From Minisyncoccota bacterium (GTDB taxonomy: Bacteria > Patescibacteriota > Minisyncoccia > Phycocordibacterales > SBAW01), in contig DASZWM010000006.1 in assembly GCA_035546615.1 (NCBI GenBank), forward strand, positions 128,001 to 192,000: a DNA stretch of 64,000 bases, in the 5' to 3' direction. This document shows positions 4,944 through 54,747 of the stretch, in pieces (the stretch's first letter is position 1; the number at the start of each line of letters is the position of its first letter). Below the pieces are notes generated by a model, which was given only the letters and a program-made list of their open reading frames with translations, ran no database searches and was not told where the DNA came from. A program made the translations under genes and the position numbers.

Positions 4944-6233
4944 ATGCAAGCATTTTTCAAAAAATCAGTAGCGAGACTTTTAAAGCTCGAAGCGCGCCTC
5001 GTTCTGCGCAAATACAAGCCCCGCATCGTCGCGGTGACCGGCAGCGTGGGGAAGACCTCCACCAAGGACGCCATCTACGCGGTGGTGTCCAAGGGCGTAT
5101 ACGCGCGCAAATCGCAGAAGAGCTTCAACAGCGAGATAGGCCTGCCGCTGACCGTGTTGGGACAGCCTAACGCCTGGCGCAATCCTTTTCGCTGGATCGA
5201 GAACCTGTTCGACGGGCTCATGCTGTATGTGCTTCCGAGGCGCTATCCGGAATGGCTCGTGCTCGAGGCCGGCGCCGACCGGCCGGGCGACATCTCGTCG
5301 CTCTCTTCGTGGCTTCCGGTGGATATCGCGGTCATTACGCGCCTGCCGGAGGTGCCCGTACATGTTGAATACTTTGACTCGCCGGAGGCGGTAAAGGAAG
5401 AGAAGGCCTCGCTGATACGCGCGCTTAAGGAGGGCGGCTCCCTGGTGCTCTATGCCGATGATAAGGAGGTGGCCGGCTTGCGCGAGCGCGCTGCAACTGC
5501 CCGTGTCACAACGTTCGGCTTCCATGAGGATGCGGATGTCCGCGCGCACGACGCGCGCGTATCGTTGGACGAGCACGGCCGGCCCGCCGGCATGGTGTCG
5601 CAGATAACAATGGCGGGGAAGACCGCGGAACTGGTCGTGAAAGGCGCCTTGGGCGCGCACGCGCTTCTGCCCGCGCTCGCCGCGGCGGGCGTCGGTCTTG
5701 CGATGGGGAAGGGGGAAGGCGAGATACTGGAGTCGCTCAAGGGCTACGAGCCGCCGCACGGCAGGATGCACCTGATACCCGGCCTCAAGGGCACGCTCAT
5801 TATCGACGACACGTACAACTCAAGCCCCGCGGCGGTCGAAGCCGCGCTCGCTGCGCTGGCGCTTGTGCCGGGTCGCAAGATAGCGGTGCTGGGCGACATG
5901 CTCGAGCTGGGCCGGCATTCGGTGGACGAGCACCGCAAGGCGGGAGCGTGGGCGGCCAAGGTCGCTGACGCGCTCATTACCGTGGGCTTCCGCGCGCGCG
6001 ATATCGCCGAAGGCGCGCTTGACTCCGGCATGCGGGATTCGCAGATACTCCAGTTCGAGGATGCGGGCCCGGCCGGCAAGGAGCTTGAGCTGATGCTTCA
6101 GGCGGGGGATATCATTTTGATAAAAGGCTCGCAGAGCATGCGCATGGAGCGCATGGTCGAGGAGATAATGCTCAATCCCGAGCAGGCGCCGCATCTCCTC
6201 GTGCGCCAGGATGCGGAGTGGAAAAAACGCTAA
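4944..6233 (+). CDS. murF: UDP-N-acetylmuramoyl-tripeptide--D-alanyl-D-alanine ligase MurF (Mur ligase family)
   Basis: P-loop VTGSVGKTSTK; DDTYNSSP (cf. DDSYNANP); C-terminus GDMLELG...KGSQSMRMERMVEEI aligns with the MurF C-terminal pattern, not the MurE DNPR motif. Confidence 0.85.
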   Translation: MQAFFKKSVARLLKLEARLVLRKYKPRIVAVTGSVGKTSTKDAIYAVVSKGVYARKSQKSFNSEIGLPLTVLGQPNAWRNPFRWIENLFDGLMLYVLPRRYPEWLVLEAGADRPGDISSLSSWLPVDIAVITRLPEVPVHVEYFDSPEAVKEEKASLIRALKEGGSLVLYADDKEVAGLRERAATARVTTFGFHEDADVRAHDARVSLDEHGRPAGMVSQITMAGKTAELVVKGALGAHALLPALAAAGVGLAMGKGEGEILESLKGYEPPHGRMHLIPGLKGTLIIDDTYNSSPAAVEAALAALALVPGRKIAVLGDMLELGRHSVDEHRKAGAWAAKVADALITVGFRARDIAEGALDSGMRDSQILQFEDAGPAGKELELMLQAGDIILIKGSQSMRMERMVEEIMLNPEQAPHLLVRQDAEWKKR

Positions 6234-6843: not shown

Positions 6844-7155
6844 ACTGTGAGCTATTGGCAGCAACCGGACTGGATCCGGCGGAGAAACGATATGGCATTG
6901 GCGCGGGTGATCGATGAGGCAGAACCTACGCCTCATCAGGACAGGATTGCCCGAGAGCGGGAGATCCTCCAGAAACTCATTCACGGGAAGGACTTTTTCG
7001 GGGGAGAGACCTTCTTCCGAAAAGGCAATCAGTCCTACTATGGCACGGTCAAAAGCGCTGACGTTCTCACGGGGCGTGTGCTCGTGGAGGAACAACTGAC
7101 GGGTCTCGGCATGTATGCGTGGCCGTCCGAGCTTAGCGTTTTCCGCGGGCATTAG
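6844..7155 (+). CDS. Hypothetical protein (~103 aa). Start ambiguous: TTG 6835, GTG 6844 after GGGAGGT, or ATG ~6892 after GGAGA
   Basis: SD-like GGGAGGT/GGAGA before the candidate starts; sequence ...DFFGGETFFRKGNQSYYGTVKSADVLTGRVLVEEQLTGLGMYAW. No family recognised. Confidence 0.45.
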   Translation, partial: TVSYWQQPDWIRRRNDMALARVIDEAEPTPHQDRIAREREILQKLIHGKDFFGGETFFRKGNQSYYGTVKSADVLTGRVLVEEQLTGLGMYAWPSELSVFRGH

Positions 7156-7162
7156 GGTTGGA

Positions 7163-7261
7163 AATGAACCAGCCGCATCGATGCCAGGACCGCACAAAGG
7201 TCCTTAAGCCGGCCAAGAAAAAGAGGCGGCGAGCCCGCATCAAGCCGGCGAAGAAGAAGTA
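7163..7261 (+). CDS. Candidate very small, highly basic peptide (32 aa: MNQPHRCQDRTKVLKPAKKKRRRARIKPAKKK)
   Basis: ATG 8 nt after the upstream stop, preceded by GGTTGGAA, and directly followed by a terminator. Below the ORF-track size cutoff. Coding status unproven. Confidence 0.25.
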
Positions 7262-7288
7262 GCCTGCCGGAACGGCAGATAATGATAG

Positions 7289-7322
7289 AGGGGCGCGGCA
7301 TTCTCCGCGCTCTTTCTTTTTC
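7289..7322 (+). terminator. Rho-independent terminator (GCGCGG...CCGCGC plus TTTCTTTTTCTC), preceded by a CTGCCG/CGGCAG hairpin
   Basis: GC stem plus a long T-rich tract. Confidence 0.65.
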
Positions 7323-7424
7323 TCTATTTTTGTTTTATATTCTTTACACGGCCCTTGGTGCAAAGCACCAAGGTAGTCGCTCGGGGCAAAAAGAAAAGCA
7401 AACTTTTCTTTTCTTCCTCGCTCC

Positions 7425-7496
7425 GGCCCTTTCGTCTAACGGTTAGGACAGTTCCCTCTCACGGAACAAATACGGGTTCGATTCCCGTAGGGGTCA
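7425..7496 (+). tRNA. tRNA-Glu (anticodon CTC)
   Basis: Cloverleaf folded by hand: acceptor GGCCCTT/AGGGGTC (two G-U pairs), D-arm GTCT/GGAC, anticodon stem GTTCC/GGAAC with loop CTCTCAC, T-arm ACGGG-TTCGATT-CCCGT, discriminator A, no encoded CCA. Strong similarity to E. coli tRNA-Glu (TTCGTCTA...AGGACA). Confidence 0.85.
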
Positions 7497-7507
7497 TGAG
7501 ACCGAAA

Positions 7508-7531
7508 AAAGCCCACTGCTGGGCTTTTTTC
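7508..7531 (+). terminator. Rho-independent terminator after tRNA-Glu (AGCCCACTGCTGGGCT plus TTTTTT)
   Basis: Stem-loop plus T6. Confidence 0.8.
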
Positions 7532-7556
7532 GTGTACTCATGACAGACGGAAGCAT

Positions 7557-7890
7557 GTTTCTTCAGCAGAAGAAACAGCTGAGTCAGGGTCGTGGAAATT
7601 CAATCGCGACGGCGAGTGAATTATCCATGACCACGTGTGACGGCCGGAGCCATGTTTTGTTAGCAAACAAAACAGGCGAGTCCGGGTCTGGAAAATTTCT
7701 GTTTGACGAAACAGAAATTATTGTGGACCACCCGTGAGGCCGCAGCCATGTCCCGCAACGGCGGGACGGCGAGGCGGGGTCGCGAGCGAAATTTCTGACG
7801 AGAAATTTCGACTTGTGACCACAAAAAGTCCTATAAGAGGTCGGGGCCGCGAGATTTTTCCGTCAGGAAAAATACTTGTGACCCCATGTG
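7557..7890. repeat. Degenerate tandem array of five AT-rich perfect palindromes (8-12 bp stems, 3-6 nt loops) interleaved with GC-rich spacers that share GCGAG...ACTTGTGACC(A/C)C flanks
   Basis: Palindromes at 7557-7576 (GTTTCTTC-AGCA-GAAGAAAC), 7653-7670 (TTTTGTTAGCAAACAAAA), 7691-7718 (AAATTTCTGTTTGACGAAACAGAAATT), 7786-7809 (CGAAATTTCTGACGAGAAATTTCG), 7853-7872 (ATTTTTCCGTCAGGAAAAAT). Recurring flanks ACTTGTGACCAC, ACTTGTGACCCC, ATTGTGGACCAC, CCATGACCACGTGTGAC. A coding frame through the region is implausible. Confidence 0.7.
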
Positions 7891-7898
7891 ACAGCCGG

Positions 7899-7907
7899 TG
7901 GTATTCT
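7899..7907 (+). promoter_or_regulatory. Extended -10 promoter (TGGTATTCT) 8 nt upstream of the mpg ATG; near-leaderless transcript predicted
   Basis: TGn plus TAnnnT hexamer; no SD before the ATG at 7916. Confidence 0.5.
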
Positions 7908-7915
7908 AGAGCCGT

Positions 7916-8446
7916 ATGAAGAAAGTCCTCGGTCCCGAATTTTTCAACCGCCCGACGCTCACGGTCGCCCGCGAGCTTGTGGGCAAATATCTGGTGCGCC
8001 GCTCCAACGGCAAAACCATAGCTCTGAGTATTACCGAAACGGAGGCGTATGACGGCTTTAAGGACCTTGCGTCCCACGCCCGCCGCGGCAAGACCCCGCG
8101 AAATCTCCCGATGTACGCTCCGGCCGGCACTATATATGTGTACTTCACCTACGGCATGCACTGGATGCTCAATCTGGTATGCGGGGAATCTGAATATCCC
8201 GCCGCCGTGCTTATTCGCGGCGCCGGAGAGGTAGTAGGACCCGCCCGGCTTACAAAAGCGCTGGGGATAGATAAAAGCCTCAACGCGATGATGCTGGGCA
8301 AAAAATCGGGCTTGTGGGTCGAAGACAGGGGAGAAACGGTACGGCCGAAAGATATCGAGCGCACGCCGCGCATCGGCATTGCATACGCGGGCGAGTACGC
8401 GTGCAAGCCCTGGAGGTTCGTGCTCAAAGGGGGCCAGCGAATGTAA
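7916..8446 (+). CDS. mpg: DNA-3-methyladenine glycosylase (Mpg/AAG family)
   Basis: LGPEFFNRPTLTVARELVGKYLV...TETEAYDGFKDLASHARRGKTPRN..MYAPAGTIYVY..YGMHWMLNLV matches the MPG family signature. Confidence 0.88.
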   Translation: MKKVLGPEFFNRPTLTVARELVGKYLVRRSNGKTIALSITETEAYDGFKDLASHARRGKTPRNLPMYAPAGTIYVYFTYGMHWMLNLVCGESEYPAAVLIRGAGEVVGPARLTKALGIDKSLNAMMLGKKSGLWVEDRGETVRPKDIERTPRIGIAYAGEYACKPWRFVLKGGQRM

Positions 8447-11243: not shown

Positions 11244-12383
11244 ATGGAGCCGCTGGCTAACAAGATACGCCCCAAAACGCTTGATGAGTTTGTGGGCCAG
11301 GAGCACCTGGTCGGCCCCGGCAAGCCCCTGCGCGTGGCTATAGAGGAAGGGCACCTATTCTCTTTTATATTGTGGGGCCCGCCGGGCTCAGGCAAGACGA
11401 CGCTGGCGCGCATCTACGCCAATGCTCTGGACGCCGAGTTCTACGAGCTTTCGGCGGTCGACTCCGGCAAGGAGGACATCAAGCGCATCGTAGGCGAGAA
11501 GGGGGCGCTGGATTTCTCCACGAAGCCTAAAATCCTATTCATCGACGAGATACACCGCTTTAATAAGGCCCAGCAGGATTTTCTCCTGCCGTACGTGGAG
11601 CGCGGCGAGCTCACTCTCATTGGGGCAACGACCGAGAACCCCAGCTTCGAGGTTATCTCGGCGCTCCTGTCGCGCTGCCGCGTGTTCGTGCTCAATGAGC
11701 ACGGCGAAAGCGAGATGGATTCCATTATCAAGCGCACGAAGCTGAAGGTCCCGAAGGATGCGCGCGACTGGCTCGTGCAGATGGCCGGCGGCGACGCGCG
11801 GCAGGCCATTACGACGCTTGAGAATACGCAGAAGCTCTATGGCAAGATAACGGTGGATACCCTCAAGGAAAGCATACAGTCCGCGCACCTGCGCTACGAC
11901 AAGAAGGGCGAGGAGCACTACAACACTATCTCGGCGTTCATAAAGAGCATGCGCGCCAGCCAGCCCGACGCGGCGCTGTACTACCTGGCGCGCATGGTCG
12001 AAGCGGGTGAGGATCCGCTCTTTATTGCCCGGCGGATGGTGATATTCGCCAGCGAAGACGTAGGGCTGGCGCAGCCGACCGCGCTTGTAGTAGCCAACGC
12101 GGTGTTCGAAGCATGCGACAAGATAGGCTACCCCGAGGCGGCAATAAACCTGGCGCACGGCGTGGCGTATCTGGCGAGCTGTAAAAAGGACCGCAGCGCG
12201 TACGACGGATATTTCGACGCGCTGGACGACGTACGAAAATTCGGCAACCTCCCTATACCGCTCAAGATCCGCAACGCGCCGACGAAGCTGATGAAAGACC
12301 TCAAGTACGGCAAAGGCTATGAAAGATACGACAAGGAATCCTACCTGCCCGAAAAGCTGAAGGGCAAGAAATATCTGAAATAG
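11244..12383 (+). CDS. rarA: Replication-associated recombination protein A (AAA+ ATPase RarA/MgsA)
   Basis: Walker [12 protein letters not shown]; LADKIRP-like N-terminus ([19 protein letters not shown]); MgsA C-terminal domain. Confidence 0.9.
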
Positions 12384-25239: not shown

Positions 25240-25741
25240 AAATAGAGCAACCGCTCTGTCAAAAAGAAGGAATATCCGATGACAGGAATAGTCGATACAC
25301 GCCGCGCATGTCTAAGATGCGGTAGCCCCATCTCATCCGCAAGCAGCCCGCTTGTTGTGCAAGAGCGAGGCTTCAGCGCAGAAGCGTGCGTGCCCGCTGC
25401 GATATGTCGCAATTCGGCCTGTGGCCAGGTCACTGCGGATCGCGCAAGTGTGGCGAACTCATCGTTGCGGTGGATGTACGGGCGCACCCCGGTCACTTTC
25501 GTTCCGGGCCCGATTTCCCGGTCTAATGAGTTTTTGCTTACTCCTACGGCCGCGCAGCTCCATCGGGCGTAAGGCTCAACGGAAACGTCACCTCCCCGTC
25601 GCGTCCAGTACAGGATGCGACGGTTTTGCTTCGCAAACCCGCGACCCCGCCTCACAATCGCTTTAGCGATATGTTCCGGCCTTCAATTCCGGGCGCAGGC
25701 AAAGCAGTTTACCTGCTCGGCCCTCCTTCGTTAACACTCAG
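25240..25741 (-). other. ~500-nt region with low coding potential between the exonuclease and tRNA-Pro; candidate structured non-coding RNA (or pseudogene). Strand is guessed from a minus-orientation terminator-like hairpin at 25244-25258
   Basis: The only ORFs here are a Cys/Ser/Arg-rich 97-aa frame and a 146-aa GTG frame whose GC3 (~60%) equals bulk GC, versus ~75-80% in neighbouring real genes. Many local hairpins; no RNase P, tmRNA or SRP consensus found by eye. Confidence 0.25.
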
Positions 25742-25812
25742 TCGGGCCGCCGGGAATTGAACCCGGTCTACATGCACCCCATGCATGTGTACTGCCGGTA
25801 TACTACGGCCCG
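25742..25812 (-). tRNA. tRNA-Pro (anticodon GGG)
   Basis: Folded by hand on the minus strand: acceptor CGGGCCG/CGGCCCG, D-arm GTAT/GTAC, anticodon stem CATGC/GCATG with loop ATGGGGT, variable loop TAGA, T-arm CCGGG-TTCAATT-CCCGG, discriminator A. Confidence 0.8.
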
Positions 25813-27885: not shown

Positions 27886-28099
27886 AACAGCATAAGTAAT
27901 CTAAAACAAAAACCGTCCGGCTAACCCCGGGCGGTTTTTGTATAGTAAGGGTCAAAAAGGAAAGGGGCCGGTCCGAAGACTGGCCCCATACATGGTAAGA
28001 CGTCGAGACGTCCCGCGCCCTGAACGCTTTCAAAGCGGCCCACGCACCTTTATAGCGTACTGCATGCGGCACACAATCGCCAAGCGGGGATAGTGGATA

Positions 28100-28108
28100 T
28101 GCTAGAAT
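28100..28108 (+). promoter_or_regulatory. Extended -10 (TGCTAGAAT) 6 nt upstream of the ATG at 28115; leaderless-type
   Basis: TGn plus TAGAAT; no SD. Confidence 0.45.
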
Positions 28109-28114
28109 ACGGGT

Positions 28115-28630
28115 ATGAAAAAGCATCTTGCCTTGTTCGCCATTGGCGCCGTGTTCCTGCTTCCTCAGCCGGCCGCCGCCGCTTCTCTTACTCAGGCGCA
28201 GGTAATCGCCATCGTGAGCCTGCTCCAGTCCTTTGGCGCGGATTCCTCCGTTATCGCCAACGTCCAGAAGTCGCTGGGGGGCACTTCCATAACCGTTTCC
28301 AATACCTGCAAATCGAACCTGGTCGTTACGGCCGACACCGATACGGTCAATCTCAAGGTAGATAATTCCAAGGACCGCGGCAACGTGGTATTCACCCTCG
28401 ATATAACCTCCTGCAAGTCCTTCACTTCAAGTGCTGTACATATGCTCTTCGACAAAAGGGAAGCGTATCTGCCTATAGACACCAGCGGCACCAAGCAAAG
28501 CGACGGCACTTGGCGCTCCACCACCGACGCTACCGCAAGCGGCTCGATGTTCCGCACGACAGGGGAGCATCTGGTCATCTTCGACTACCAAGGCCTCACC
28601 ACGAGCCTCGTCATCAACGTCAAACCGTAA
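28115..28630 (+). CDS. Hypothetical secreted protein (171 aa) with a Sec signal peptide
   Basis: MKKHLALFAIGAVFLLPQPAAAAS; Thr/Ser-rich mature part. Confidence 0.6.
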   Translation: MKKHLALFAIGAVFLLPQPAAAASLTQAQVIAIVSLLQSFGADSSVIANVQKSLGGTSITVSNTCKSNLVVTADTDTVNLKVDNSKDRGNVVFTLDITSCKSFTSSAVHMLFDKREAYLPIDTSGTKQSDGTWRSTTDATASGSMFRTTGEHLVIFDYQGLTTSLVINVKP

Positions 28631-28642
28631 TACGTTAAAATA

Positions 28643-28672
28643 TTGACGATTCCACATATTTTGTGGTATTTT
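28643..28672 (+). promoter_or_regulatory. Promoter TTGACG-N18-TATTTT with TGTGG extension (TGTGGTATTTT) for the tautomerase-like gene
   Basis: -35 at 28643-28648, -10 at 28667-28672. Confidence 0.45.
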
Positions 28673-28716
28673 GTCCCTTGGCTAGATTTAACCAAGCGCC
28701 GAAGGACGCATAGTAA

Positions 28717-29076
28717 ATGCCGCAGATTACGCTTTGGTGCCTTCCGCATATGTCGGAAGGAAAACTGCGCGAGCTTCATAAGAGTGTCGTTGCAGCAGCG
28801 GTCAGCATCAAGGAGCTCGGACTCAAGGACGAGAACGATTTCCTGACCGTTTTTCCGGTCGATATGATGGAATACGGTCTCGGTACCGAGATCATGGTCC
28901 AGGTGTCGGAGCTCTGGGACAAGCCGGAGCGTACGCCTGAGGTCCGCAACCGCCTCGCTCAAGCGCTGGGCAAGGCGGTCAAGGAACTGTTCCCAGGTGC
29001 GCTCGTTGCAGCCCGCATCGACCCGCCCTTCAGCCCGAAAGAACATGGATTCTGGGCGTCAAATATGCCGGAATAA
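28717..29076 (+). CDS. Hypothetical protein, possibly tautomerase-like (N-terminal Met-Pro)
   Basis: Begins MPQITLW...; 119 aa. Assignment weak, based only on the MP start and size. Confidence 0.45.
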   Translation: MPQITLWCLPHMSEGKLRELHKSVVAAAVSIKELGLKDENDFLTVFPVDMMEYGLGTEIMVQVSELWDKPERTPEVRNRLAQALGKAVKELFPGALVAARIDPPFSPKEHGFWASNMPE

Positions 29077-29080
29077 TACC

Positions 29081-29140
29081 GGCCGACGAATGAAAAGCCT
29101 TCCGGCGATTCACTTCGTCGGCCGGCTTTTCTTTTATATA
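29081..29140 (+). terminator. Strong rho-independent terminator (ACCGGCCGACGAA...TTCGTCGGCCGGC plus TTTTCTTTT)
   Basis: 13-bp stem plus T-run; marks the left edge of the low-GC island. Confidence 0.75.
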
Positions 29141-29272
29141 AGCAGGGAAGTGGCTTCCCTCTTTGTGGCGAGAAAATAGAGTAGGTGGAAATCCCGCTTT
29201 ATAATTTTAGATTATTCCCAGATCTTTGAGTTTCTAAGGTAAGAATCCCTACCTGTCTTTATCGTAGAAACC

Positions 29273-30331
29273 CTATCCGTTCTTGGCAAGCTTGTCGGTG
29301 TTGGAAGGGTTTCCCGCACCACTGTTCTTAGGGGGTTTATTGTCAGATCCTCCACCGTCACTAACTTTATCTTTTTCTTTTCCATTTTCGTTACCCGGTT
29401 TAATTATACTTGCTTTATCTTGTTTTTGTAAAAGTTTATCAATAAAGCCTGTTATATCATCACTCCCATCATCTACGAGCATAAGATGGATAGAAAGTTT
29501 TTCCAGAGACTTCTTATATTCTTCACTAAATGGCATCTCATCAGCTTTAATTACATTAGGTAAATAGGACTTGAGAAGGCTATAGTCTACGACGTATCCG
29601 TGGTCAGGGCAGTCGTATGCTAGGAAATCAATAAAGTTATCGACCTTAGCTTGCTCCATCTCACTGTATTGAGTAAGAATCCGCTTAGCATACATTCTCC
29701 CAACATCTAGAGAGCGAGTCATTGTGCCGAGCTCTATTGTTTCCACTTTCTGAAGAAGGGGTTGATAGAATTTTGCAGAATAATCCAGCAACATTTCGGC
29801 AAGGGGTTTTCTCCCGATTTTCAATATCTCCTCAGTGACTTTCTTTTTAGAACGAAGTTGGTTGAACATTTCGAGCATACCTTGTCTTGAGCGAGCCTCA
29901 ATTTGTAAGAGACTGGCTTGTACATTCAAAGCGGATGACCACTGGCCTTCGGGGTCTGTGTCATCATCCTTCTTGACTTGTACGTCAATTGGTCCAAGTT
30001 CGCCGAAGTCACCAAGAACGACTCGGCTCGCGCCGAGAGTAAATATAGTGGCGGCGCTTTTTGCCCAAAACGGGATTACGACATTTACAATATCGAACTT
30101 CTCACGAAATGTTCTTATTAACCGATAGGCATCGTCAGCTTGTCCTCCTCCAGATTGAAGGATTATATCTACTTCTGCGCTATGTGGGGTGTCTTGCAGA
30201 CTCCTTCGGACTCTTACTACATTGATGCCACCGATTCCACCAAAGTAGACAAAAGTAGGTATTTCTCCTCTTAAATTTTGCAACACTTTAACCTCGGTGA
30301 GTACTTTTGGAATATCTCTCATCTCGGACAT
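29273..30331 (-). CDS. SDH-family (serine dehydrogenase proteinase, S49/ClpP-fold) putative peptidase with a Lys/Gly/Asp-rich C-terminal tail
   Basis: VDIILQSGGGQADDAYRLIRTF...VIPFWAKSAATIFTLGASRVVLGDFGELGPIDVQV parallels the SDH/S49 pattern (HTPGG ... AMSGGT ... LGPVDPQ). AT-rich codons. Confidence 0.6.
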   Translation of the reverse strand: MSEMRDIPKVLTEVKVLQNLRGEIPTFVYFGGIGGINVVRVRRSLQDTPHSAEVDIILQSGGGQADDAYRLIRTFREKFDIVNVVIPFWAKSAATIFTLGASRVVLGDFGELGPIDVQVKKDDDTDPEGQWSSALNVQASLLQIEARSRQGMLEMFNQLRSKKKVTEEILKIGRKPLAEMLLDYSAKFYQPLLQKVETIELGTMTRSLDVGRMYAKRILTQYSEMEQAKVDNFIDFLAYDCPDHGYVVDYSLLKSYLPNVIKADEMPFSEEYKKSLEKLSIHLMLVDDGSDDITGFIDKLLQKQDKASIIKPGNENGKEKDKVSDGGGSDNKPPKNSGAGNPSNTDKLAKNG

Positions 30332-30717
30332 AATATCTCTGTAGAGGCGCCTTGTAAATCAACATGCGTTTTGAGAAGGGAAATGGATTATGCTGTAAAG
30401 ACTTTATGATCCCGAGTTCATTGATAAACAAAAGGATTCTATCCGGGGAAGGGGTGCGGATTATTCTAGCCGAGATTCCCGGCCCTCTCTAGGTTAAAAG
30501 GTATATATAGGTCGCAAAAGGTATATTGTGCGACGTATCTACCCTTTAACTAATCCCGCACGCGGCGGGCTTCCCCATTTGATTTGCATCACTCAATTAA
30601 GTTTCCGCAGCGTATCAGTTTTTAACAATCTCCTTCCAGATCTGCGCTGTGCTTTTTCAACGAACTGGGTACTCCCCTGAACACAATAGTCGGACAGGGG
30701 AGCAAGTCCAGTTTTAA

Positions 30718-30726
30718 GGGGGGGGG
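30718..30726. repeat. Homopolymeric G9 (C9 on the minus strand) tract in the island's non-coding arm
   Basis: GGGGGGGGG at 30718-30726; an unusual simple-sequence repeat for this sequence and a potential slipped-strand site. Confidence 0.6.
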
Positions 30727-30773
30727 TATAAACTCCTCCTTTGCTTCCCTGCCCCAGCTTTCCCTTATGCCTA

Positions 30774-30803
30774 TTGACATACTTTATAATGATATGTTAT
30801 GAT
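30774..30803 (+). promoter_or_regulatory. Near-consensus promoter TTGACA-N18-TATGAT, followed by a leader hairpin (TGAAC-GGAAA-GTTCA) and a perfect SD (AAGGAGGTGA)
   Basis: -35 at 30774-30779, -10 at 30798-30803, GGAGGT at 30827-30832. Confidence 0.55.
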
Positions 30804-30836
30804 ACATGAACGGAAAGTTCATTGAAGGAGGTGACT

Positions 30837-31088
30837 ATGACGGAACGTCGCAGGAACATCCCGAAGGGCAAGACGAGAGTCATCGGCTGCGATCTCTTCG
30901 ATCGCAGCGATTACTTGGTCGGCGACTATCACAAGCGTGAAGACGCTTTCAAGATCGCCGACGAGAAGAACCGCGCTCGCACCGGCTCGATGGATGATGT
31001 CTATTACGTCTACGACGACACCGGCAAGTACATTCGCGGCGAGGAAGCCGTGAAGGAGCTGACCGGCGGCCTCGGCATCAGTCCGTAG
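30837..31088 (+). CDS. Hypothetical small protein (83 aa, MTERRRNIPKGKTRVIGCDLFDRSDYLVGDYHKREDAFKIADEKNRARTGSMDDVYYVYDDTGKYIRGEEAVKELTGGLGISP)
   Basis: Strongest expression signals in the window (consensus promoter, perfect SD, terminator); high-GC native codon usage; no family recognised. Confidence 0.6.
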   Translation: MTERRRNIPKGKTRVIGCDLFDRSDYLVGDYHKREDAFKIADEKNRARTGSMDDVYYVYDDTGKYIRGEEAVKELTGGLGISP

Positions 31089-31117
31089 GTCGAAGATGGG
31101 GCGATAGCGTAGCATTA

Positions 31118-31148
31118 GGCGGGAGAGAAATCTCCCGCCTTTTCTTTT
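31118..31148 (+). terminator. Rho-independent terminator (GGCGGGAGAGAAATCTCCCGCC plus TTTTCTTTT)
   Basis: 8-bp stem plus T-run. Confidence 0.75.
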
Positions 31149-31234
31149 GATACGTTTTGCGACGCCGCTTCAGATAATTGAATTTGTGCGACACTTATAA
31201 CCTCGCGACCCGGCTGGTACAATGACTGGTACGC

Positions 31235-31903
31235 ATGCGGTACAAAGATCAGATCCGGGCCCTTCTCTCCCCTGCGGAGCGCGCCGTCTTTAAAAAGTTA
31301 AAGACTCCAATGCTTGTACAGGACTACATTGAGGCCCTCCCCCAGAATTTTTCTTACAAGGCGGGGGACACCTGCCGCTCGGCGCGCCGGATATTGAAGG
31401 AAAAGAAGGCCTACTGCTTTGAGGGGGCGGTATTCGCCGCTGCCCTGCTCGCCTACCATGGCCGCACGCCGTGGCTCCTTGATCTCCAGACCACCAACGA
31501 CGACGAGGACCACGTGCTCGCGCTCTTTAAAGAGAACGGGCTGTGGGGCGCCGTCAGCAAGACCAATCATCCGGTCCTGCGCTGGCGCGACCCGGTGTAC
31601 AAAACGGTGCGCGAGCTTGCGATGAGCTTTTTCCACGAATACTTTCTGCCCGACACGGGGAAGAAGACGCTCCTTGCGTACTCCAAGCCTTTTGATCTTT
31701 CAAAATATAAGCCGGAGCTGTGGGTCACCTCAGAGAAAAGCCTGGACTGGCTGGCGGAGGACATGGACGCCTCAAAGCACTTCCCCATTGCAGACAAAAT
31801 CTCGCTTAAGCGAGCGCGCAAAGCATCGAAGCTTGAGCGCAAGGCACTGATGCTCGAAGAATGGAAACCGAAAACTAATTCTTCATCCCTATCCCCTTTT
31901 TGA
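31235..31903 (+). CDS. Hypothetical protein, possibly transglutaminase-like cysteine-peptidase fold
   Basis: KAYCFEGAVFAAALLAYHG...DDEDHVLALF suggests a Cys...His...Asp arrangement. Weak. Confidence 0.45.
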   Translation: MRYKDQIRALLSPAERAVFKKLKTPMLVQDYIEALPQNFSYKAGDTCRSARRILKEKKAYCFEGAVFAAALLAYHGRTPWLLDLQTTNDDEDHVLALFKENGLWGAVSKTNHPVLRWRDPVYKTVRELAMSFFHEYFLPDTGKKTLLAYSKPFDLSKYKPELWVTSEKSLDWLAEDMDASKHFPIADKISLKRARKASKLERKALMLEEWKPKTNSSSLSPF

Positions 31904-32648
31904 ACAGCGTGAGGATTATGATGAGGAACGCGGCGGTGAGCGCCAGCAATATGCCGAAGGAAAGCCCGACGGGCACGTCCGACTGCCCCAGGAATCCGTA
32001 GCGGAACGCGTTGACCATATAGAGTATGGGGTTGAAGAGCGACACGGTCTGCCAGAACGGCGGGAACTGCTCTATCGAGTAGAACACTCCCCCGAGGAAC
32101 GTAAGCGGCGTCAAAATGAACGTCGGCACGATGGAAATGGAATCGAACGTATTGGCGAACATCGCGTTGAGGAATCCGGCCAGCGAAAAGAGCACGCAGG
32201 TAAGCACGAAGGCGGCCAGCACGATGAATACGTTGTGGACAACCAGATGCGTGAAGAAGAGCGCCGTTATGAGCACCAGGACCCCGATGACGCAGCCGCG
32301 GATGATGCCGGCGGTGACGTAGCCCGCCACTATCGTCCAGTTGGGCATCGGCGAGACCATCATTTCCTCGAGGTTCTTCTGGAACTTGGCCATGAACAGG
32401 GCGGTGGAGGTATTGCTGTAGGCGTTCATGATTATCTGCATCATCACCAGGCCCGGGACGATGAACATAATGTATGAAACGCCGTGGACGGCCGGCAGCT
32501 GGGAGCCGATGAAGGTGCCGAAGACCAGGAAGTAGAGCGACGTGGTGATGACGGACGGCAGGAACGTCTGCTGCCACAGGCGGAACATGCGCCATGAGTC
32601 CTTGCGGACGACCGTGAGATACGCGATGAATATTTTTTTAGGGGTCAT
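31875..32648 (-). CDS. ABC-2 type transporter permease
   Basis: Six predicted TM helices, ABC-2 signature region; sits just downstream of the ABC ATPase gene (2-nt gap). Confidence 0.85.
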   Translation of the reverse strand: MTPKKIFIAYLTVVRKDSWRMFRLWQQTFLPSVITTSLYFLVFGTFIGSQLPAVHGVSYIMFIVPGLVMMQIIMNAYSNTSTALFMAKFQKNLEEMMVSPMPNWTIVAGYVTAGIIRGCVIGVLVLITALFFTHLVVHNVFIVLAAFVLTCVLFSLAGFLNAMFANTFDSISIVPTFILTPLTFLGGVFYSIEQFPPFWQTVSLFNPILYMVNAFRYGFLGQSDVPVGLSFGILLALTAAFLIIILTLFKKGIGMKN

Positions 32649-36819: not shown

Positions 36820-36882
36820 ACCAGTTCGAACCCCGACAGTTGTTTGCTCACGCAAACGCTGCCGGGGCTTTCGTTTTTATAC

Positions 36883-41646: not shown

Positions 41647-42355
41647 ACGTCGGTGTCGAAACCTGGTCGGATTGCAGCTGAATATCGCCGAACTCTTTCT
41701 CCTGGCTTGCCATGATTATACCCTGCTTTACCAGCTCCAAAAGGGCCAAAAAGCCCACTATTATCTCGCCTTTTTCCCTTTTGCCGGCGAACTCGCGGAA
41801 CGACAGCCGCATGGCCGAGGAGATGCGCTTGGAGAGGCTCTCTATCATGTCCTCCAGCGACATTATTTTCTTTACCTCCACTTTCGGAAGCGCGGCAAGC
41901 TGCGGGAAGCCCTGGATGAGCACCTGCGCGGCGGCTCTGAGCGACTCTTTTGTAACGGAGTCATCCGGCAGGAACATGGGCTCCGGCGCCTGCGGCGTGC
42001 CTTCCCAGAGCATTGGGCCGTTAAACGACTGCCTGAGTCCTTTGGCGGAGTCTTTAAGCAATTGGTAAACCGCAAGGCGGTACTGAAGCTCCTTGATGTC
42101 GCGCTCCTCGTCGCCCGATAGTTCAAGATTCGGCAGAAGCGAGCGGGATTTGATGAGGAGCAGTGTAGCCGCGAGCGAAACGAACTGCGCCGTCTCGCCG
42201 ACGGGTAGCGTTTCCATCGCATTGACGCTCGCAATGTACTCGTCCGCTACTTGTGCCAAAGAAATATCGTTTATGAGGAGCTTGCGCTTCTCGATAAGCT
42301 CGAGCAACAGGTCCAGCGGACCTTCATACACGGGAGTTTTGACGTTCAGAGGCAT
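41639..42355 (-). CDS. scpA: Segregation and condensation protein A (kleisin)
   Basis: VYEGPLDLLLELIEKRKLLINDISLAQVADEY... canonical ScpA N-terminus. Confidence 0.9.
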   Translation of the reverse strand: MPLNVKTPVYEGPLDLLLELIEKRKLLINDISLAQVADEYIASVNAMETLPVGETAQFVSLAATLLLIKSRSLLPNLELSGDEERDIKELQYRLAVYQLLKDSAKGLRQSFNGPMLWEGTPQAPEPMFLPDDSVTKESLRAAAQVLIQGFPQLAALPKVEVKKIMSLEDMIESLSKRISSAMRLSFREFAGKREKGEIIVGFLALLELVKQGIIMASQEKEFGDIQLQSDQVSTPTYE

Positions 42356-43581
42356 TACAGTGTGAACTGCCCGTTATCGTAGATAACTTTCTGCGTGCCG
42401 TCGGTCAGATGCGCGGTAACGCGGCGTTTCGTAGTTGTGATGATATCGGTATGCACCGAAGAATCGTTATAGCCCAGCGCCGCCGACTGCTTTTTAGTGA
42501 GTTTGCTCACGTCGCCGGTGTAGGTGTCTTCATAGGCGGAACCCAACGCGATGTGCGAATTGCCCTGCGGGCCGCCCATGTTCTCGTCGAACAGGGTCTC
42601 GGCCATGAACTTCGTGATGCGCGAGTGGCGGCGGTCGGTCATCGAGAACTCGCCGATGCGGTCGGCACCGGGCGTGCGTATCATTTCGTGCAGGAGCTTC
42701 TGGCCGGTCTTGGCGCGGCTCTTTACGACCCTGCCGTTTTTGAACCATAGCTCGATGCCGGTTATCTTGCTGCCGTAGCGGTAGAGCGGCTGGTTGAATC
42801 GTATCCAGCCGCTGGTCCCCCGCCAGTCGGGAGAAGTGAATATCTCAAAGCTCGGAATGTTTGCGCCGCGGCCGGAAAGCCATTTGCGGCTTTCGCCCAG
42901 CGTAATCCAAAGGTCGGCGTCTTCCCCTTCTATATGCAGGCGGTCTATTTTCGGCGAGAGGTCGTTGAGCTTCTTGTTGTACTTATGGATGTCCTTATAT
43001 ACGTCGTTCCACTTTTTTATAGGGTCCTTCTCATCAAGAAAGCATGCCTGGATTATCTCGTGCCAGTACTCTTGTATGGAAAGCCCCGCTTCTTTGGCCA
43101 TACCCTCGGTGCCATAGAGCGCGATGGACCAGGACAGCTTGCCCTGATTCTCCTTGTCGCGGCGCCAGTCCATGAACTGCTTCATGGCCTTGCCCCGGCG
43201 CATAATCTTCTTCGGATCTACGTTCTTGAGCGCCTGAGAATCCACATCGGCCAGGATAAAAAGGATATGGTCCATCTGATCTACAAGCCCTTTAAAGTAG
43301 TGCGCCGGAAAAAAGTCGAGCTGGTGGTCCTTCGCGCGCTCAAAAAAATCGGCGCTGAAGTTGTACCGGTCGTCGCCGTTTGGCTGGTAGAGCATGATGG
43401 TGTGCCCTCCCGCCTCAAGCACCGCATTGCGCACCGCGATAAAAAGCGGACGGCATGATTCCATGCCGTTTATGCAAACCACGTCGCCTTTCTTGATTCC
43501 CCTGCCGTGGCCCAGAGCGAAATTCACCAGCACGTCCGCGTAGCGCTTTAGGACCACCGGACTAGGCGTATACCCCTTCAT
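42355..43581 (-). CDS. Aminopeptidase, M29 family (AmpS/PepS-like)
   Basis: M29 thermophilic metalloprotease pattern and size (408 aa). TAAAAT hexamer 8 nt upstream of the ATG. Confidence 0.8.
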   Translation of the reverse strand: MKGYTPSPVVLKRYADVLVNFALGHGRGIKKGDVVCINGMESCRPLFIAVRNAVLEAGGHTIMLYQPNGDDRYNFSADFFERAKDHQLDFFPAHYFKGLVDQMDHILFILADVDSQALKNVDPKKIMRRGKAMKQFMDWRRDKENQGKLSWSIALYGTEGMAKEAGLSIQEYWHEIIQACFLDEKDPIKKWNDVYKDIHKYNKKLNDLSPKIDRLHIEGEDADLWITLGESRKWLSGRGANIPSFEIFTSPDWRGTSGWIRFNQPLYRYGSKITGIELWFKNGRVVKSRAKTGQKLLHEMIRTPGADRIGEFSMTDRRHSRITKFMAETLFDENMGGPQGNSHIALGSAYEDTYTGDVSKLTKKQSAALGYNDSSVHTDIITTTKRRVTAHLTDGTQKVIYDNGQFTL

Positions 43582-43613
43582 ATGGGCCCATTTTAGCGCA
43601 AATACAGGCTATT

Positions 43614-44228
43614 TTAAAGGCTCTTGATGTCCTTAACTATCTCCGGAAACTGCTCTTGATTCTGGTGTTTCCTGTCTTCGAATATTCGAACGGTAGCGTT
43701 GGGAAGCAAGTTACGATACTTCTCAAGCTCGTCGATATTTACGATAGGATCATCTTTACTGTGGTATAGGAATATCTTTCCGGCTTGTTTTTCGAATTTC
43801 TCAAGAGAGCTGGGCAGGACGAATTCGCTTACGACCCTCTGAGTCTCTCCTTTTCCGCGCATCTCAAATGGAGCTGCGACTAGAAATACTCCATTTATCT
43901 TTTTTGGGAACTCCTCTTCGGACAAGTATCTCGCCAAGAATATGCCTCCAAGCGAATGGCCTACCAATATAACTCCATGTTCTATGAAAGGAATGAATCT
44001 TTCGAACCATATCTTCCACTCCGGATATCGGGCATTTTCCTTATTGGGCATGCCGGGATATATAACCTCGTATTCATCGCCAAGGCTCTGAGGAAGCCTG
44101 CTTTTCCAGTCCCCACCGCCTTTGAACTTATCGATATAAATCGGCTTAGTCTTGAGATTGTTAAGAAAATCCTCGTAAGTTGGAAAAGCAGAACTGCCAC
44201 CATGTATGACTACAACTTGTTTTTTCAT
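43614..44228 (-). CDS. Alpha/beta hydrolase, RBBP9/YdeN-like serine hydrolase (DUF1234)
   Basis: VVVIHGGSS...ILVGHSLGG (GxSxG) ... HSKDDPIV pattern; 204 aa. Confidence 0.7.
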   Translation of the reverse strand: MKKQVVVIHGGSSAFPTYEDFLNNLKTKPIYIDKFKGGGDWKSRLPQSLGDEYEVIYPGMPNKENARYPEWKIWFERFIPFIEHGVILVGHSLGGIFLARYLSEEEFPKKINGVFLVAAPFEMRGKGETQRVVSEFVLPSSLEKFEKQAGKIFLYHSKDDPIVNIDELEKYRNLLPNATVRIFEDRKHQNQEQFPEIVKDIKSL

Positions 44229-45490
44229 TATAGTATCTTATTAGCTGCGTCTAATCCTGTTGCTAAGGCTGCTTCGACAGTGGCTGCCTCTCTACCTTGA
44301 TATAACGCTTCGCCTGCGAAAAATATCTTGTTATCTATTGGCTCCAAAAGTTCCGTTTTTGCTGCCGCGGTAGACGGCTTTGCGTAACTATAAGCGCCTT
44401 TTGCATAGGGGTCAGCAGACCAATTTATCACGCGAAAGTGCTTAAGCTCGCTTTGCAGCATTTCTTTCGAAACTTTCAAGATGGTTGCAAGCGTATCAAG
44501 AGAGCGACTTACCACTATTTCGTCGCTTAACCCTTCGAATTCCTTAACCTTAGGGCCCGCAAGCCAGCCGGTAAGCATTGGAATCTCTTCCGGGTACTGC
44601 GTCCACCATGCCCCGAACTCCTCGTTAGTAAGCAGCAATATCATCTTGCTCAGATCATGTTCATTCGCCTGTGCCCACCAGCGAGATTTGAACTTCAAGA
44701 GCACTTTTATTACGCCGCCAAATCCGATGTTTTGTGCTGCCTGGATCTTTTCCGGCTGCTCCGGCGTAAAGGAAATATTTGGCAAAATCGAAGTCGGCAC
44801 GGTTACAAGGACTTTCTGGGCCTCAAATATTTTTCCATCAGAGCACGTTATTTTTATAGTGTCGGTCGATGTATCTATTCCCTGTACTACAGTATGCAAC
44901 TGTATCTCTACTCCAAGTCTTTTGCACTCATTTTGTAAAAACTTCACAAGCGCTCCATACCCCTCCTTCAATTTTGCCTGCTCTCCCATGCCTTCGCTCA
45001 TCCACTCGTCGCGCAGCATGTACATGCTTACTTCCGCCGGGTCGGCTGCGTCGTACCCTTCAGCCATCCGCGTTACCGCATTGCGTAGACCTTCGTATTT
45101 TTCTTCCAAAAAATGCGTATCCAGGAATTTGGCAAGCGGCATATCTTCCTCAAGGACTTTTAACTTCTCCTGCAGTGCGTCCATATCGGGAACGATAAAG
45201 GGAGCCTGCGAAAGTTCGCCGTTGCGGGCATTCCAAATTTCTCCATCGCGCACTAATACCGTTAGCCCAGCGTCTTGTGCGAGAGCCCTGGTAACAGGAG
45301 TAGCTCCGTGTATAAACTCTGCACCGGCTTCTGCAGGAAAGCCGAATTCATCGGCAGGTAAAGTGTAAATGCGCCCTCCGACGCGATCGCGCGCTTCCAG
45401 AATAGTCACTTTCTTTCCGGCCTTCGCGAGCTCTCGCGCAGCCATAAGTCCCGCAGCTCCGGCGCCTACAATAATTACCCCAGTATCCAT
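44228..45490 (-). CDS. FAD-dependent amine oxidase family oxidoreductase
   Basis: Dinucleotide-binding IIVGAGAAGLMAARELAKAGKKVTILEARDRVGGR; amine-oxidase fold length. Confidence 0.8.
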   Translation of the reverse strand: MDTGVIIVGAGAAGLMAARELAKAGKKVTILEARDRVGGRIYTLPADEFGFPAEAGAEFIHGATPVTRALAQDAGLTVLVRDGEIWNARNGELSQAPFIVPDMDALQEKLKVLEEDMPLAKFLDTHFLEEKYEGLRNAVTRMAEGYDAADPAEVSMYMLRDEWMSEGMGEQAKLKEGYGALVKFLQNECKRLGVEIQLHTVVQGIDTSTDTIKITCSDGKIFEAQKVLVTVPTSILPNISFTPEQPEKIQAAQNIGFGGVIKVLLKFKSRWWAQANEHDLSKMILLLTNEEFGAWWTQYPEEIPMLTGWLAGPKVKEFEGLSDEIVVSRSLDTLATILKVSKEMLQSELKHFRVINWSADPYAKGAYSYAKPSTAAAKTELLEPIDNKIFFAGEALYQGREAATVEAALATGLDAANKIL

Positions 45491-45521
45491 GTTCTAGATA
45501 AGTTTGAAAAAACTTAGGACT

Positions 45522-45896
45522 CTAGATTTTTTTAACAGTAAAGTAAGAACTAGCGACAGTCTTCTCACCAATGAGAATTTCTACATCGTAGCGACCTTCT
45601 TTCTCAACGGGGAACCCTTGAAGTCTATGTATAAATTGATGACGAAAGTTTTTTGGTTCAAAAGTTGTTGAATCCCTTCCAATTTCTTTTCCTTCACAGG
45701 AGATCCTAAATGATTCCATATATTGCTTATTTTGTTGGTCAGCCGGTATTTCAATATTGACAACAATGCACATACTGCTATGTATTGCAGGAAAGCCAGG
45801 TACATTTATAGAATCAAACACACCTCTGATATTTAATTTTTTGTCGTTCTCAGAAATTTCGGCCGAATCACACAAAAGAATGAAATTTGGTTTCAT
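45522..45896 (-). CDS. Hypothetical protein (124 aa), AT-rich
   Basis: ORF on the same strand and with the same composition as its island neighbours; no family recognised. Confidence 0.45.
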   Translation of the reverse strand: MKPNFILLCDSAEISENDKKLNIRGVFDSINVPGFPAIHSSMCIVVNIEIPADQQNKQYMESFRISCEGKEIGRDSTTFEPKNFRHQFIHRLQGFPVEKEGRYDVEILIGEKTVASSYFTVKKI

Positions 45897-45935
45897 AAAA
45901 ACTATTTTAGCATGTAAAAAAATATTTGTCTAATT

Positions 45936-47381: not shown

Positions 47382-47418
47382 ATGTATTTTGTGTTTTTGC
47401 AAAAAGCTAAAATGATTT

Positions 47419-48892: not shown

Positions 48893-48950
48893 GACAACTA
48901 GAGTCATAGATAATTTAGTTGTCGTCACAACTAAATTTCTGCCGACCCCG
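48893..48950. repeat. Cluster of three ACAACTA(A) elements forming two nested inverted repeats (GACAACTA...TAGTTGTC...ACAACTAA) between the convergent genes
   Basis: Seen directly; no T-tract, so not a simple terminator. Confidence 0.5.
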
Positions 48951-49034
48951 CCTCAGCTATTTTGCTTGCTGGCAAAATATGCTTCCGGCCCGTGTAAGTG
49001 CAGCAAAAAGTAAAGCAGTTTACTTTTTTCAGCC

Positions 49035-54491: not shown

Positions 54492-54498
54492 GAAAAAA

Positions 54499-54520
54499 CC
54501 GGCTTTCGCCGGCTTTTCTT
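54499..54520. terminator. Bidirectional terminator (AGCCGGCGAAAGCCGGCT with A/T tracts) between rpsI and the grpE promoter; a second 10-bp inverted repeat CGAGTTTAGC-N4-GCTAAACTCG lies at 54551-54574
   Basis: Stem-loop with TTTTTT on the minus strand. Confidence 0.65.
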
Positions 54521-54747
54521 GAAGTATAGTTAGCGCTTGCGGCCACATGTCGAGTTTAGCCGTCGCTAAACTCGCACGCGGTCAGGCGTCGTTTTCTGCT
54601 GAAAACGCGCACGACCCTGGCTCGCGCCGTCGCGCTCCGCCTCTGAATCCTTCAGGTGTTCGGATTCAGCCCGCCTCGCCATTTTGCAAGTGCAAAATAT
54701 GGCTCCGGCCGTCTCGCGTTTAATAAAAGCAAAACTGATTGCTTTTA

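Follow-up and report, generated by a model that had tools for sequence, protein, structure and literature searches.

Repetitive extragenic palindromic (REP) sequences and bacterial interspersed mosaic elements (BIMEs) of enterobacteria, and the REPINs of Pseudomonas, are dispersed, modular hairpins in extragenic 3' positions that form tandem clusters and carry strand-specific imperfections; REP/BIME elements act in RNA as stabilizers or terminators, though they spread as DNA. The BOX elements of Streptococcus pneumoniae (boxA-boxB(n)-boxC) are modular intergenic repeats with variable tandem modules and predicted stable RNA structures. In integron attC sites and the attP(+) site of CTX phage, inverted segments fold around a center with conserved strand-specific mismatches. 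Small RNAs (sRNAs) of tRNA operons, such as the 3' external transcribed spacer (3'ETS) of leuZ and the internal spacers of Escherichia coli, are non-tRNA segments 3' of or between tRNAs that are released by processing. Integrative elements of tRNA genes (attL/attR) have the tRNA 3' end directly repeated at their borders, and direct repeats of this kind, 13-21 nt long, also surround some inserts in the related genomes described here. Here we describe a tandem array of hairpins that shares features with each of these systems. It lies between the genes for tRNA-Glu and methylpurine-DNA glycosylase (mpg) in a 64,000-nt stretch of DNA from a Minisyncoccota bacterium (contig DASZWM010000006.1, positions 128,001 to 192,000; hereafter, the window). 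We favor, with moderate confidence, the reading that the array is a structured RNA module of tRNA-operon transcripts in Parcubacteria (Paceibacteria-type bacteria of the candidate phyla radiation, CPR), tandemly amplified here to 3.5 copies.

The 420-nt gap between tRNA-Glu and mpg contains three full units of approximately 97 nt and one half unit, delimited by direct repeats spaced 97 nt and by folding. The region is laid out as follows.

7425-7496, + strand: tRNA-Glu(CTC), called by ARAGORN and matched by the Rfam tRNA model at 60 bits; the array lies 3' of it.
7497-7540, + strand: trailer, consisting of TGAGACC (7497-7503) and a CTGC-loop hairpin (7503-7532); inverted repeat I1.
7541-7637, + strand: unit U1, with hairpin A1 at 7553-7579 (loop AGCA), junction GCTGAGTCAGGGTCG and hairpin B1 at 7587-7632 (loop GACG).
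7638-7734, + strand: unit U2, with hairpin A2 at 7649-7677 (loop AGCA), junction GGCGAGTCCGGGTC and hairpin B2 at 7684-7729 (loop GACG).
7735-7827, + strand: unit U3, with hairpin A3 at 7745-7770 (GC-rich stem, loop AACG), junction GGCGAGGCGGGGTCGCGAG and hairpin B3 at 7776-7820 (loop GACG).
7828-7888, + strand: half unit U4, without hairpin A; hairpin B4 at 7843-7885, its loop inverted to GTCA.
7889-7915, + strand: post-array segment, TGACAGCCGG (7889-7898) followed by a -10-like TATTCT (7902-7907) 8 nt 5' of the mpg ATG.
7916-8446, + strand: mpg (Pfam PF02245, E = 5e-54), the downstream neighbor, outside the element.

Each full unit consists of a hairpin A (loop AGCA or AACG) and a hairpin B (loop GACG), and the array totals seven hairpins in 3.5 units. 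This count leaves aside the CTGC-loop hairpin at 7503-7532, an eighth hairpin located straight after tRNA-Glu, whose 13-bp perfect stem carries an A-tract and a T-tract. A preliminary description of this DNA reported five AT-rich palindromes beginning at 7557; the hairpins are real and go far beyond chance (z = -12.0, see below), but the palindromes resolve into two-hairpin units, and the feature begins at 7541 (or 7497). Hairpin A is flanked by ..GGAGCCATG on its 5' side and GGCGAG.. on its 3' side, and the conserved sequence joining the hairpins of the array units is CGGAGCC..GGCGAG-NC-GGGTCG..TGTGACC. The lower stem of hairpin B is conserved (GGTCGCGAG / CTTGTGACC) and pairs only via G.U wobbles, hence on the + strand only; its upper stem is AT-rich and perfectly paired, with a sequence that varies between units. 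The shared flanks noted earlier, GCGAG and ACTTGTGACC(A/C)C, are real and correspond to the two strands of this lower stem. The segment TGACAGCCGG following U4 equals the opening 10 nt of another unit. A stem scan of the entire window found 29 perfect stems of at least 8 bp, seven of which lie within 7353-7810. Tandem Repeats Finder did not detect the array because the units are too diverged and differ by indels.

The units are ~73% identical, abut one another head-to-tail on one strand and have no unique spacers, and their variable parts are self-complementary stems, in agreement with the earlier judgment that this is not an array of clustered regularly interspaced short palindromic repeats (CRISPR). 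Because the structured repeats are in tandem and two open reading frames (ORFs) of 61-65 amino acids (7540-7737 and 7734-7919) span them, they might alternatively be read as a CRISPR-like or type III toxin-antitoxin-like processed array, or as a coding repeat. We consider such readings scarcely tenable: the repeats are diverged and spacerless, the downstream gene is mpg rather than an endoribonuclease toxin gene, other copies of the element have unrelated neighbors, the stem variation is compensatory and not codon-like, and the reading frame shifts between units because 97 nt is not a multiple of three. Hairpins A and B have no T-tract and therefore do not qualify as intrinsic terminators (GC-rich stem plus U-tract); in the CTGC-loop hairpin at 7503-7532 the A-tract pairs with the T-tract, and its likeness to a terminator was judged by eye only. 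A promoter/terminator scan called no sites inside the array and no terminator in 7497-7890. Hammerhead, K-turn and guanidine-II (ACGR loop) motifs were considered and rejected, as junction lengths and loop register did not fit and Rfam gave no match.

RNA folding, a check proposed in the preliminary description, gave -169.8 kcal/mol for the + strand of 7541-7890 (350 nt) against -105.2 +/- 5.4 kcal/mol in 100 dinucleotide shuffles (z = -12.0). The - strand of the same stretch reached -145.6 kcal/mol (z = -9.3), and the + strand is 24 kcal/mol more stable.

Two covariance models were used to look for further copies. R1 was seeded on U1 and U2 only, with a hand-written structure because MAFFT misaligned the hairpins; R2 was built from 39 metagenome cores and the window copy near rpsI (54580-54642), with none of the array units included. 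R1 found U3 (46.1 bits), the dnaJ unit and the rpsI array in the window, its 109.7 bits for U1 being high by construction. R2 matched three further loci of the window as well as all four array units (27-40 bits, E = 1e-3 to 6e-7), with independent scores of 39.9 bits (E = 6e-7) for U1, 27 bits (E = 1e-3) for U2, which is in 97-nt register with U1, 35.4 bits (E = 9e-6) for U3 and 31.8 bits (E = 7e-5) for U4. Since R2, built without the array, recognizes all four units, the array belongs to the family.

An exact look-up of the MPG protein gave a single contig of 1 kb. Among 80 related loci fetched via MPG from Parcubacteria/Paceibacterota, Adlerbacteria, Kaiserbacteria and Zambryskibacteria, seven contain copies, and R1 matched three loci (L012, L023 and L041; compared loci are designated by L numbers). 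The rpsI copy is ~90% identical to the copy in L041 despite 62% identity of the two MPG proteins. A 22-nt pattern taken from the part common to these two copies retrieved 72 metagenome contigs, about 50 of which are true members, the rest being GC-rich coding sequence; the same pattern had no match in 2.9 million viral contigs. The preliminary description would have taken a lack of other copies and of conservation in relatives as a sign of random palindromes; both copies and conservation were found.

The family has two forms. The short-form core is 63 nt, AGACGGAGCGC-GACG-GCGCGAG-TC-GGGGTCGCG-(stem, loop AGCA)-TGTGACC, with a mean identity of about 86% across about 40 contigs and many tRNA contexts. 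The long form, to which the array belongs, is about 90-100 nt, with a long, AT-rich first hairpin (AGCA loop) and a second hairpin with a GACG loop; R1 found long-form units in L088, L097, L104, L096, L130, L127, L099 and L012. The general sequence of the module is ..CGGAGC(hairpin)GCGAG-NC-GGGGTCG(hairpin)TGTGACC, in which the stem tips vary but keep pairing. Grouping the P3 variants by tRNA context gave no information because the short-form stem is itself constrained. In an orthologous tRNA-Lys/tRNA-Leu(tag) spacer compared across four genomes, conservation of the core is close to that of the tRNAs, and the preceding hairpin and the linkers are unalignable. Rfam 15 returned no non-tRNA match above noise in window positions 7000-8400 (E <= 10), none at gathering scores in the whole window and none at E <= 1 for ten canonical-core loci, and literature searches yielded no account of it. 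The element represents a tRNA-linked family of structured repeats in Parcubacteria that has not been described before.

In the short-form alignment (about 40 sequences), 98.1% of 916 pair cells are standard pairs, and 12 of the 23 pairs have changes on both sides. The observed values for paired cells, double changes and covariation score were each reached by none of 500 shuffles and that for pair types by 4 of 500; in slid-partner controls, pairing fell to 30-50%. When the short and long forms were combined in an alignment fitted to the model, 91.7% of cells were paired and double changes occurred in 34 of 36 pairs, the outermost helix of R1 being poorly supported (71% paired). One junction pair occurs in three Watson-Crick states (A-U, G-C and C-G). 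At the base of hairpin B, 39 of 40 sequences have G.U at one pair, and a second pair is divided 19:19 between G-C and G.U. The 22-nt search pattern owes its conservation to the way the copies were retrieved; evidence of covariation is therefore drawn from positions outside it and from its degenerate positions. These results show that the modeled fold of the tRNA-sense strand into two adjacent hairpins is a conserved structure under selection.

The same data bear on the earlier suggestion that the palindromes form an operator array in double-stranded DNA, where a dimeric transcription factor would control mpg or the tRNA. The palindromes do share an AAATTTC/GAAATTT flavor and lie just upstream of the promoter-like TATTCT. 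However, they differ across units and genomes while remaining complementary, the helices covary, and the lower stems depend on G.U pairs, whose counterparts on the opposite strand are A.C. The orientation follows the adjacent gene, further copies (after dnaJ, rpsI and tRNA-Pro and in spacers between tRNAs) share no downstream gene, and there are relatives that have the tRNA-Glu/mpg junction without the element. An operator array is therefore highly unlikely.

In the window, the covariance models identified four loci with about nine units, and each of the two tRNAs (tRNA-Glu and tRNA-Pro) is accompanied by a copy. The three loci other than the array are as follows.

25617-25723, - strand: tRNA-Pro(GGG) copy, nearly canonical, 18 nt downstream of tRNA-Pro (25741-25812, - strand).
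48901-49030, - strand: dnaJ copy, consisting of a CTGC-loop hairpin (49003-49030) and then a single long-form unit (48901-48995).
54541-54714, - strand: rpsI composite array, comprising a long-form half unit (54643-54714), a canonical short-form core (54580-54642) and an extra GACG-loop hairpin (54541-54579).

The tRNA-Pro copy consists, in order, of GGGCCG (25718-25723), which is antisense to the acceptor 3' strand, a CTGC-loop hairpin (25695-25716; GCAGGTAAA-CTGC-TTTGCCTGC), CCCGGAATTGAA (25682-25693), which is antisense to the T-stem/T-loop, and the core (25617-25681). Its architecture was judged canonical by reading the sequence; by score it is weak, with an R2 match of only 16.4 bits (E = 0.04-0.5) located 59 nt downstream of tRNA-Pro. 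The dnaJ copy lies straight after the dnaJ stop codon, ahead of a convergent terminator (R1, 60.4 bits, E = 2.5e-10, match 48898-48995 on the - strand; R2, 22.4 bits), and the rpsI array is followed by a strong terminator (54493-54517) and the grpE promoter (R2, 88.1 bits, E = 5e-19, the core 54580-54642 being part of the R2 training set). The units of both loci thus lie between a stop codon and a terminator. Pfam domains confirmed DnaJ, ribosomal protein S9 and GrpE. The CTGC-loop hairpin is a recurrent module, found on the - strand at 25695-25716 and 49003-49030 in the window and in L023, L012, L044, L097 and L126. A search of the window with the flank motif stayed at chance level, and the other copies were found by the covariance models alone. 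A weak R2 match at 36831-36880 was rejected as an ordinary terminator. The GC content of the window is 0.49-0.50 in 28000-32000 and 42000-48000 and about 0.59 elsewhere; judging from composition, these low-GC stretches may be acquired DNA.

The family is tightly linked to tRNA genes and occurs with no fewer than 15 tRNA species. Of the 57 copies located at most 300 nt from a tRNA gene, 54 share the strand of that tRNA (36 downstream and 18 upstream), and the upstream copies often lie 9-25 nt before the next tRNA of a cluster. Some copies sit in inter-tRNA spacers, regions that are necessarily transcribed. Copies occur on both strands within L096, L104, L143 and the window. Because the copies in L096 and the window each match the strand of the neighboring gene, orientation there tracks the local gene and not replication direction; GC skew did not separate replication direction from transcription direction.

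The canonical order on the tRNA-sense strand is the tRNA, a short terminator-like hairpin, an antisense tRNA copy, the core and a direct tRNA copy. The antisense copy is the reverse complement of tRNA positions ~73 to 57 (plus GAA), and the direct copy corresponds to positions ~57-73; together they build a third helix, P1, that closes complete copies, with 19 perfect base pairs around the core in L120. Of the units downstream of a tRNA, 47% have the 3' end of that tRNA repeated exactly over at least 10 nt after the core, compared with 0.1% for non-cognate tRNAs, and 32% have an antisense copy of at least 10 nt before the core, compared with 2%. The direct repeat of the tRNA 3' end is 13-21 nt and starts in the T-loop (17 nt in L023, 18 nt in L120 and 19 nt in L100; also in L012 and L131). 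In L126, L104, L088, L143 and the tRNA-Pro copy of the window, the antisense strand is interrupted by a CTGC-type hairpin precisely where acceptor stem and T-stem meet (positions 64-66); in L126 and L098 this hairpin reads AGCAAG..CTGC..CTTGCG, and L104 and L088 carry related forms. Where the tRNA ends in ..GCGCAC, the frame is reduced to GTGCG..CAC, and units upstream of tRNA-Ser are preceded by a copy of the initial ~17-25 nt of that tRNA. Tandem arrays in L100, L126, L097 and L130 repeat a block of tRNA 3' end, hairpin, antisense copy and core. The same frame with partly different inner hairpins was found in L016, L025 and L044. In L025, two identical 186-nt tandem units follow tRNA-Glu (7488-7887); each contains an antisense copy of the tRNA T-arm and terminates in a direct tRNA 3'-end copy, but the three inner hairpins are of another kind. 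This design recurs as a single unit in L016 and in L044. Locus L012 carries three tRNA-Asn-framed units at 11300-12250 and, upstream of mpg (~5700-5960), a fragment that resembles, by eye only, the end of an rve-type (IS481/IS3-like) transposase.

In the window array, this frame is vestigial, with few bases and a direct repeat of only 5 nt. TGAGACC (7497-7503) is a degenerate reverse complement of GGGGTCA, the final bases of tRNA-Glu. The inter-unit junction (..GACC-AC-GTG-TGACGG..) fits the GTGCG/CAC type and not tRNA-Glu, which suggests that the units were copied in or amplified without adaptation to tRNA-Glu. The array is a decayed tandem amplification of the family; with the frame gone to a few bases, its units are 'naked' cores, flanked by tRNA-Glu on one side and by the putative promoter of mpg, probably a leaderless gene, on the other.

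The main rival explanation is a mobile or integrative element acting as folded single-stranded DNA, as do REPINs, integron attC sites and the CTX-phage attP hairpin. A small circle (S-hairpin-AS-core) would fold into a dumbbell with a duplex stem of tRNA 3'-end sequence, and one strand exchange inside a tRNA gene would yield the tRNA 3' end, hairpin, antisense copy, core and direct copy; repeated integration or unequal crossing over would then produce tandem arrays. Such an element would account for the order t-h-t'-core-t, which one exchange of the attC/attP(+) type also gives, the 13-21-nt direct repeats at no fewer than 15 tRNA species, the first-hairpin palindrome that mirrors even the spacer, stems that are about 97% Watson-Crick, and a family that is multi-copy, decaying, tandem and patchy. 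It would also account for frames unfit for the adjacent tRNA (the second unit in L130, and GTG..CAC next to tRNA-Glu in the window array) and for the variable tRNA-Glu/mpg junction among relatives. Mismatches fixed on one strand are typical of attC sites and IS200/IS605 ends as well. Against this, no recombinase or transposase was seen in or beside the inserts of 100-250 nt, the Pfam check covering 10 window ORFs, and the viral contigs held no copy. A tRNA-specific stem would demand a separate element variant for each tRNA, and a single insertion does not account for the alternation of tRNA-specific with conserved segments (AS-acceptor, CTGC hairpin, AS-T, core, S2). Moreover, at the orthologous spacer the core is conserved but the supposedly co-mobile hairpin has fully diverged, and the copies 3' of dnaJ and rpsI have no tRNA target. 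We therefore regard a mobile single-stranded element as possible, if doubtful.

A further alternative is that the palindromes are functionless by-products of template switching or slippage in a repair-poor genome, in which terminator hairpins grow, duplicate and decay. Template switching is known to create reverse-complement copies, perfect stems and multi-base compensatory changes (PMC8794818), so the mechanism is documented, and the perfect stems, the palindromes mirrored well past functional need, and the tandem duplication and decay evident in half unit U4 and the vestigial frames speak for it. It leaves unexplained the mean core identity of about 86% across some 40 contigs, the invariant unpaired nucleotides and loops (GACG, AGCA and CTGC), the conservation at an orthologous site beside unalignable flanks, and the strand bias of 54 in 57. 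A family made solely by such events is improbable.

Several observations also weigh against the structured RNA module that we favor. We infer its transcription from position and orientation only, and the module may be transcribed rarely, because a unit usually follows a terminator-like hairpin; punctuation, stability and protein binding are candidate functions. The long perfect palindromes of L143, L104 and L133, which start within the tRNA and include the spacer in their symmetry, have no obvious RNA rationale. P1 is not a faithful mimic of an RNase P/Z substrate because it often pairs the discriminator base too. The variable stems, at ~97% Watson-Crick and ~1.4% G.U pairs, are unusually 'DNA-perfect' for an RNA family, and the 22 nt with which the metagenome copies were retrieved owe their conservation to that search. 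The presence or absence among relatives (absent in L024, L015 and L017), together with degenerate, truncated and tandem copies, resembles the dynamics of a selfish repeat. G.U outnumbers A.C in the variable stems by 11 to 4 and 13 to 7, counts too small to separate RNA from DNA. The palindrome arms measure 20-40 nt and are centered on the terminator-like hairpin (L143, 8490-8600; L104, ~590-680; L133, 195-260; L124, ~2330-2390).

If the array is an RNA module, it would be transcribed by read-through from an upstream tRNA or gene, or as an inter-tRNA spacer, and the enzymes that process the flanking tRNAs would cut it out. Once released, the module would act as a spacer or trailer RNA, stable and probably bound by protein, with a role in punctuating or insulating transcripts. 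Template switching during replication would generate and maintain the near-perfect stems and tRNA-derived arms, and unequal recombination between direct copies would give rise to tandem arrays. Of the earlier proposals, stacked RNA hairpins forming a processing or insulator region next to a tRNA came closest to this reading, though the two-hairpin unit and the family-wide tRNA linkage had been missed.

The tRNA-derived frame might itself be functional and not a by-product, a proposal that we find rather unlikely in either of two forms. As RNA, the frame could be a new class of customized mimic or masked antisense of the acceptor/T helix of the neighboring tRNA, and might recruit, titrate or gate processing or targeting factors of that particular tRNA. 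As DNA, it could be a new miniature mobile element that integrates as a folded single-stranded 'dumbbell' and rewrites its arms to the local tRNA. The frame is tRNA-like in that acceptor-like and T-like stems are stacked with a side arm at their junction; it has no T-loop elbow, the core replacing the T-loop, and no free discriminator or 3' end, since both the discriminator and the base that follows are often taken up in pairing with the antisense strand (L143, L104 and L120).

No counterpart of the array was found upstream of mpg in the 80 relatives, in which the tRNA-Glu/mpg junction is direct or filled by unrelated genes. In several of them (L024, 5927-6001; L017, 3330-3405; L015, 1351-1439), the mpg start codon lies 1-16 nt after the tRNA-Glu 3' end, which suggests, from position, that mpg mRNA is made leaderless by tRNA 3' processing, like mitochondrial 'tRNA punctuation'. 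Elsewhere among the relatives, tRNA-Glu and mpg are 0.3-3 kb apart, with unrelated genes between them; no integrase was recognizable in the larger inserts when ORF translations were read without a Pfam scan, and the ORFs look ordinary. In L004 (5900-6003), GTGGTCACAAACAG-ATG directly before mpg resembles a leftover tRNA-Glu 3' end (GGGGTCA), and no tRNA lies within 6 kb upstream of mpg, as if a large insertion had split the two genes. The leaderless mpg proposed earlier is plausible given these short distances and the TATTCT 8 nt before the ATG, but the promoter scan made no call. GTGACC (7878-7883), at the 3' end of the last unit, sits 18 nt upstream of TATTCT like a weak -35, so the element may supply a weak -35 box to leaderless mpg; at this pair of motifs there are 8 of 12 matches by eye, and no call in the scan. 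Two more perfect hairpins, CCTTGGTGC-AAA-GCACCAAGG (7353-7373) and AAAAGAAAAG-CAAA-CTTTTCTTTT (7389-7412), lie just 5' of tRNA-Glu, after a terminator at 7288-7315, and the former resembles the hairpin preceding the core in L126.

Parcubacteria and other CPR bacteria are uncultured organisms with tiny genomes, whose non-coding RNA and mobile DNA are almost entirely uncharacterized. The present family is abundant, with several copies in some tRNA clusters, lacks an Rfam entry and is built around copies of whichever tRNA adjoins it. If it acts as RNA, it would point to an unrecognized layer of tRNA-operon processing or control and supply a new motif for studies of structure and protein partners; if it acts as DNA, it would reveal a novel mode of tRNA-gene targeting by a miniature element. 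In either case, annotators gain a model for unexplained tRNA-flanking sequence, and the family illustrates, in nature, stems whose pairing stays perfect as their sequence drifts.

Compared with the systems described above, the family is a partial fit to tRNA-targeting integrative elements: the inserts measure just 100-250 nt, have no ORF or integrase and carry an extra inverted tRNA copy, and the window copies lack the direct repeat. Unlike attC sites, the units have no R''/R' boxes (RYYYAAC/GTTRRRY, sought by reading the units) and no dif-like site, and no integrase or recombinase was found among the ORFs examined near copies; here the center is conserved and the arms vary as copies of the local tRNA, which is the opposite of attC. 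BOX elements have no known sequence relation to the family, no known tRNA linkage and no known target-derived frame. RNAs of the leuZ 3'ETS type are weakly structured sponges from single loci, whereas the present module, for which release is deduced, is multi-copy, highly structured and conserved in sequence across many tRNAs. The earlier suggestion of a REP- or MITE-like family (MITE, miniature inverted-repeat transposable element) holds insofar as the copies are dispersed, multi-copy extragenic hairpins and, as in REP/BIMEs, imperfect palindromes; the features that define the two groups are absent. A MITE would have the same terminal inverted repeats in all copies and a short target-site duplication, whereas here the flanking inverted segments differ at each locus and match the adjacent tRNA, and the window units have almost none. 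There is no GTAG/CTAC at the hairpin feet, no RAYT transposase was seen among the 10 window ORFs scanned against Pfam (no genome-wide search was made), and the units are head-to-tail and not alternating. Finally, in contrast to REP sequences, the stems vary and the junctions and loops are conserved, and the family is distinguished by its tight linkage to tRNA genes and by a frame copied from the neighboring tRNA.

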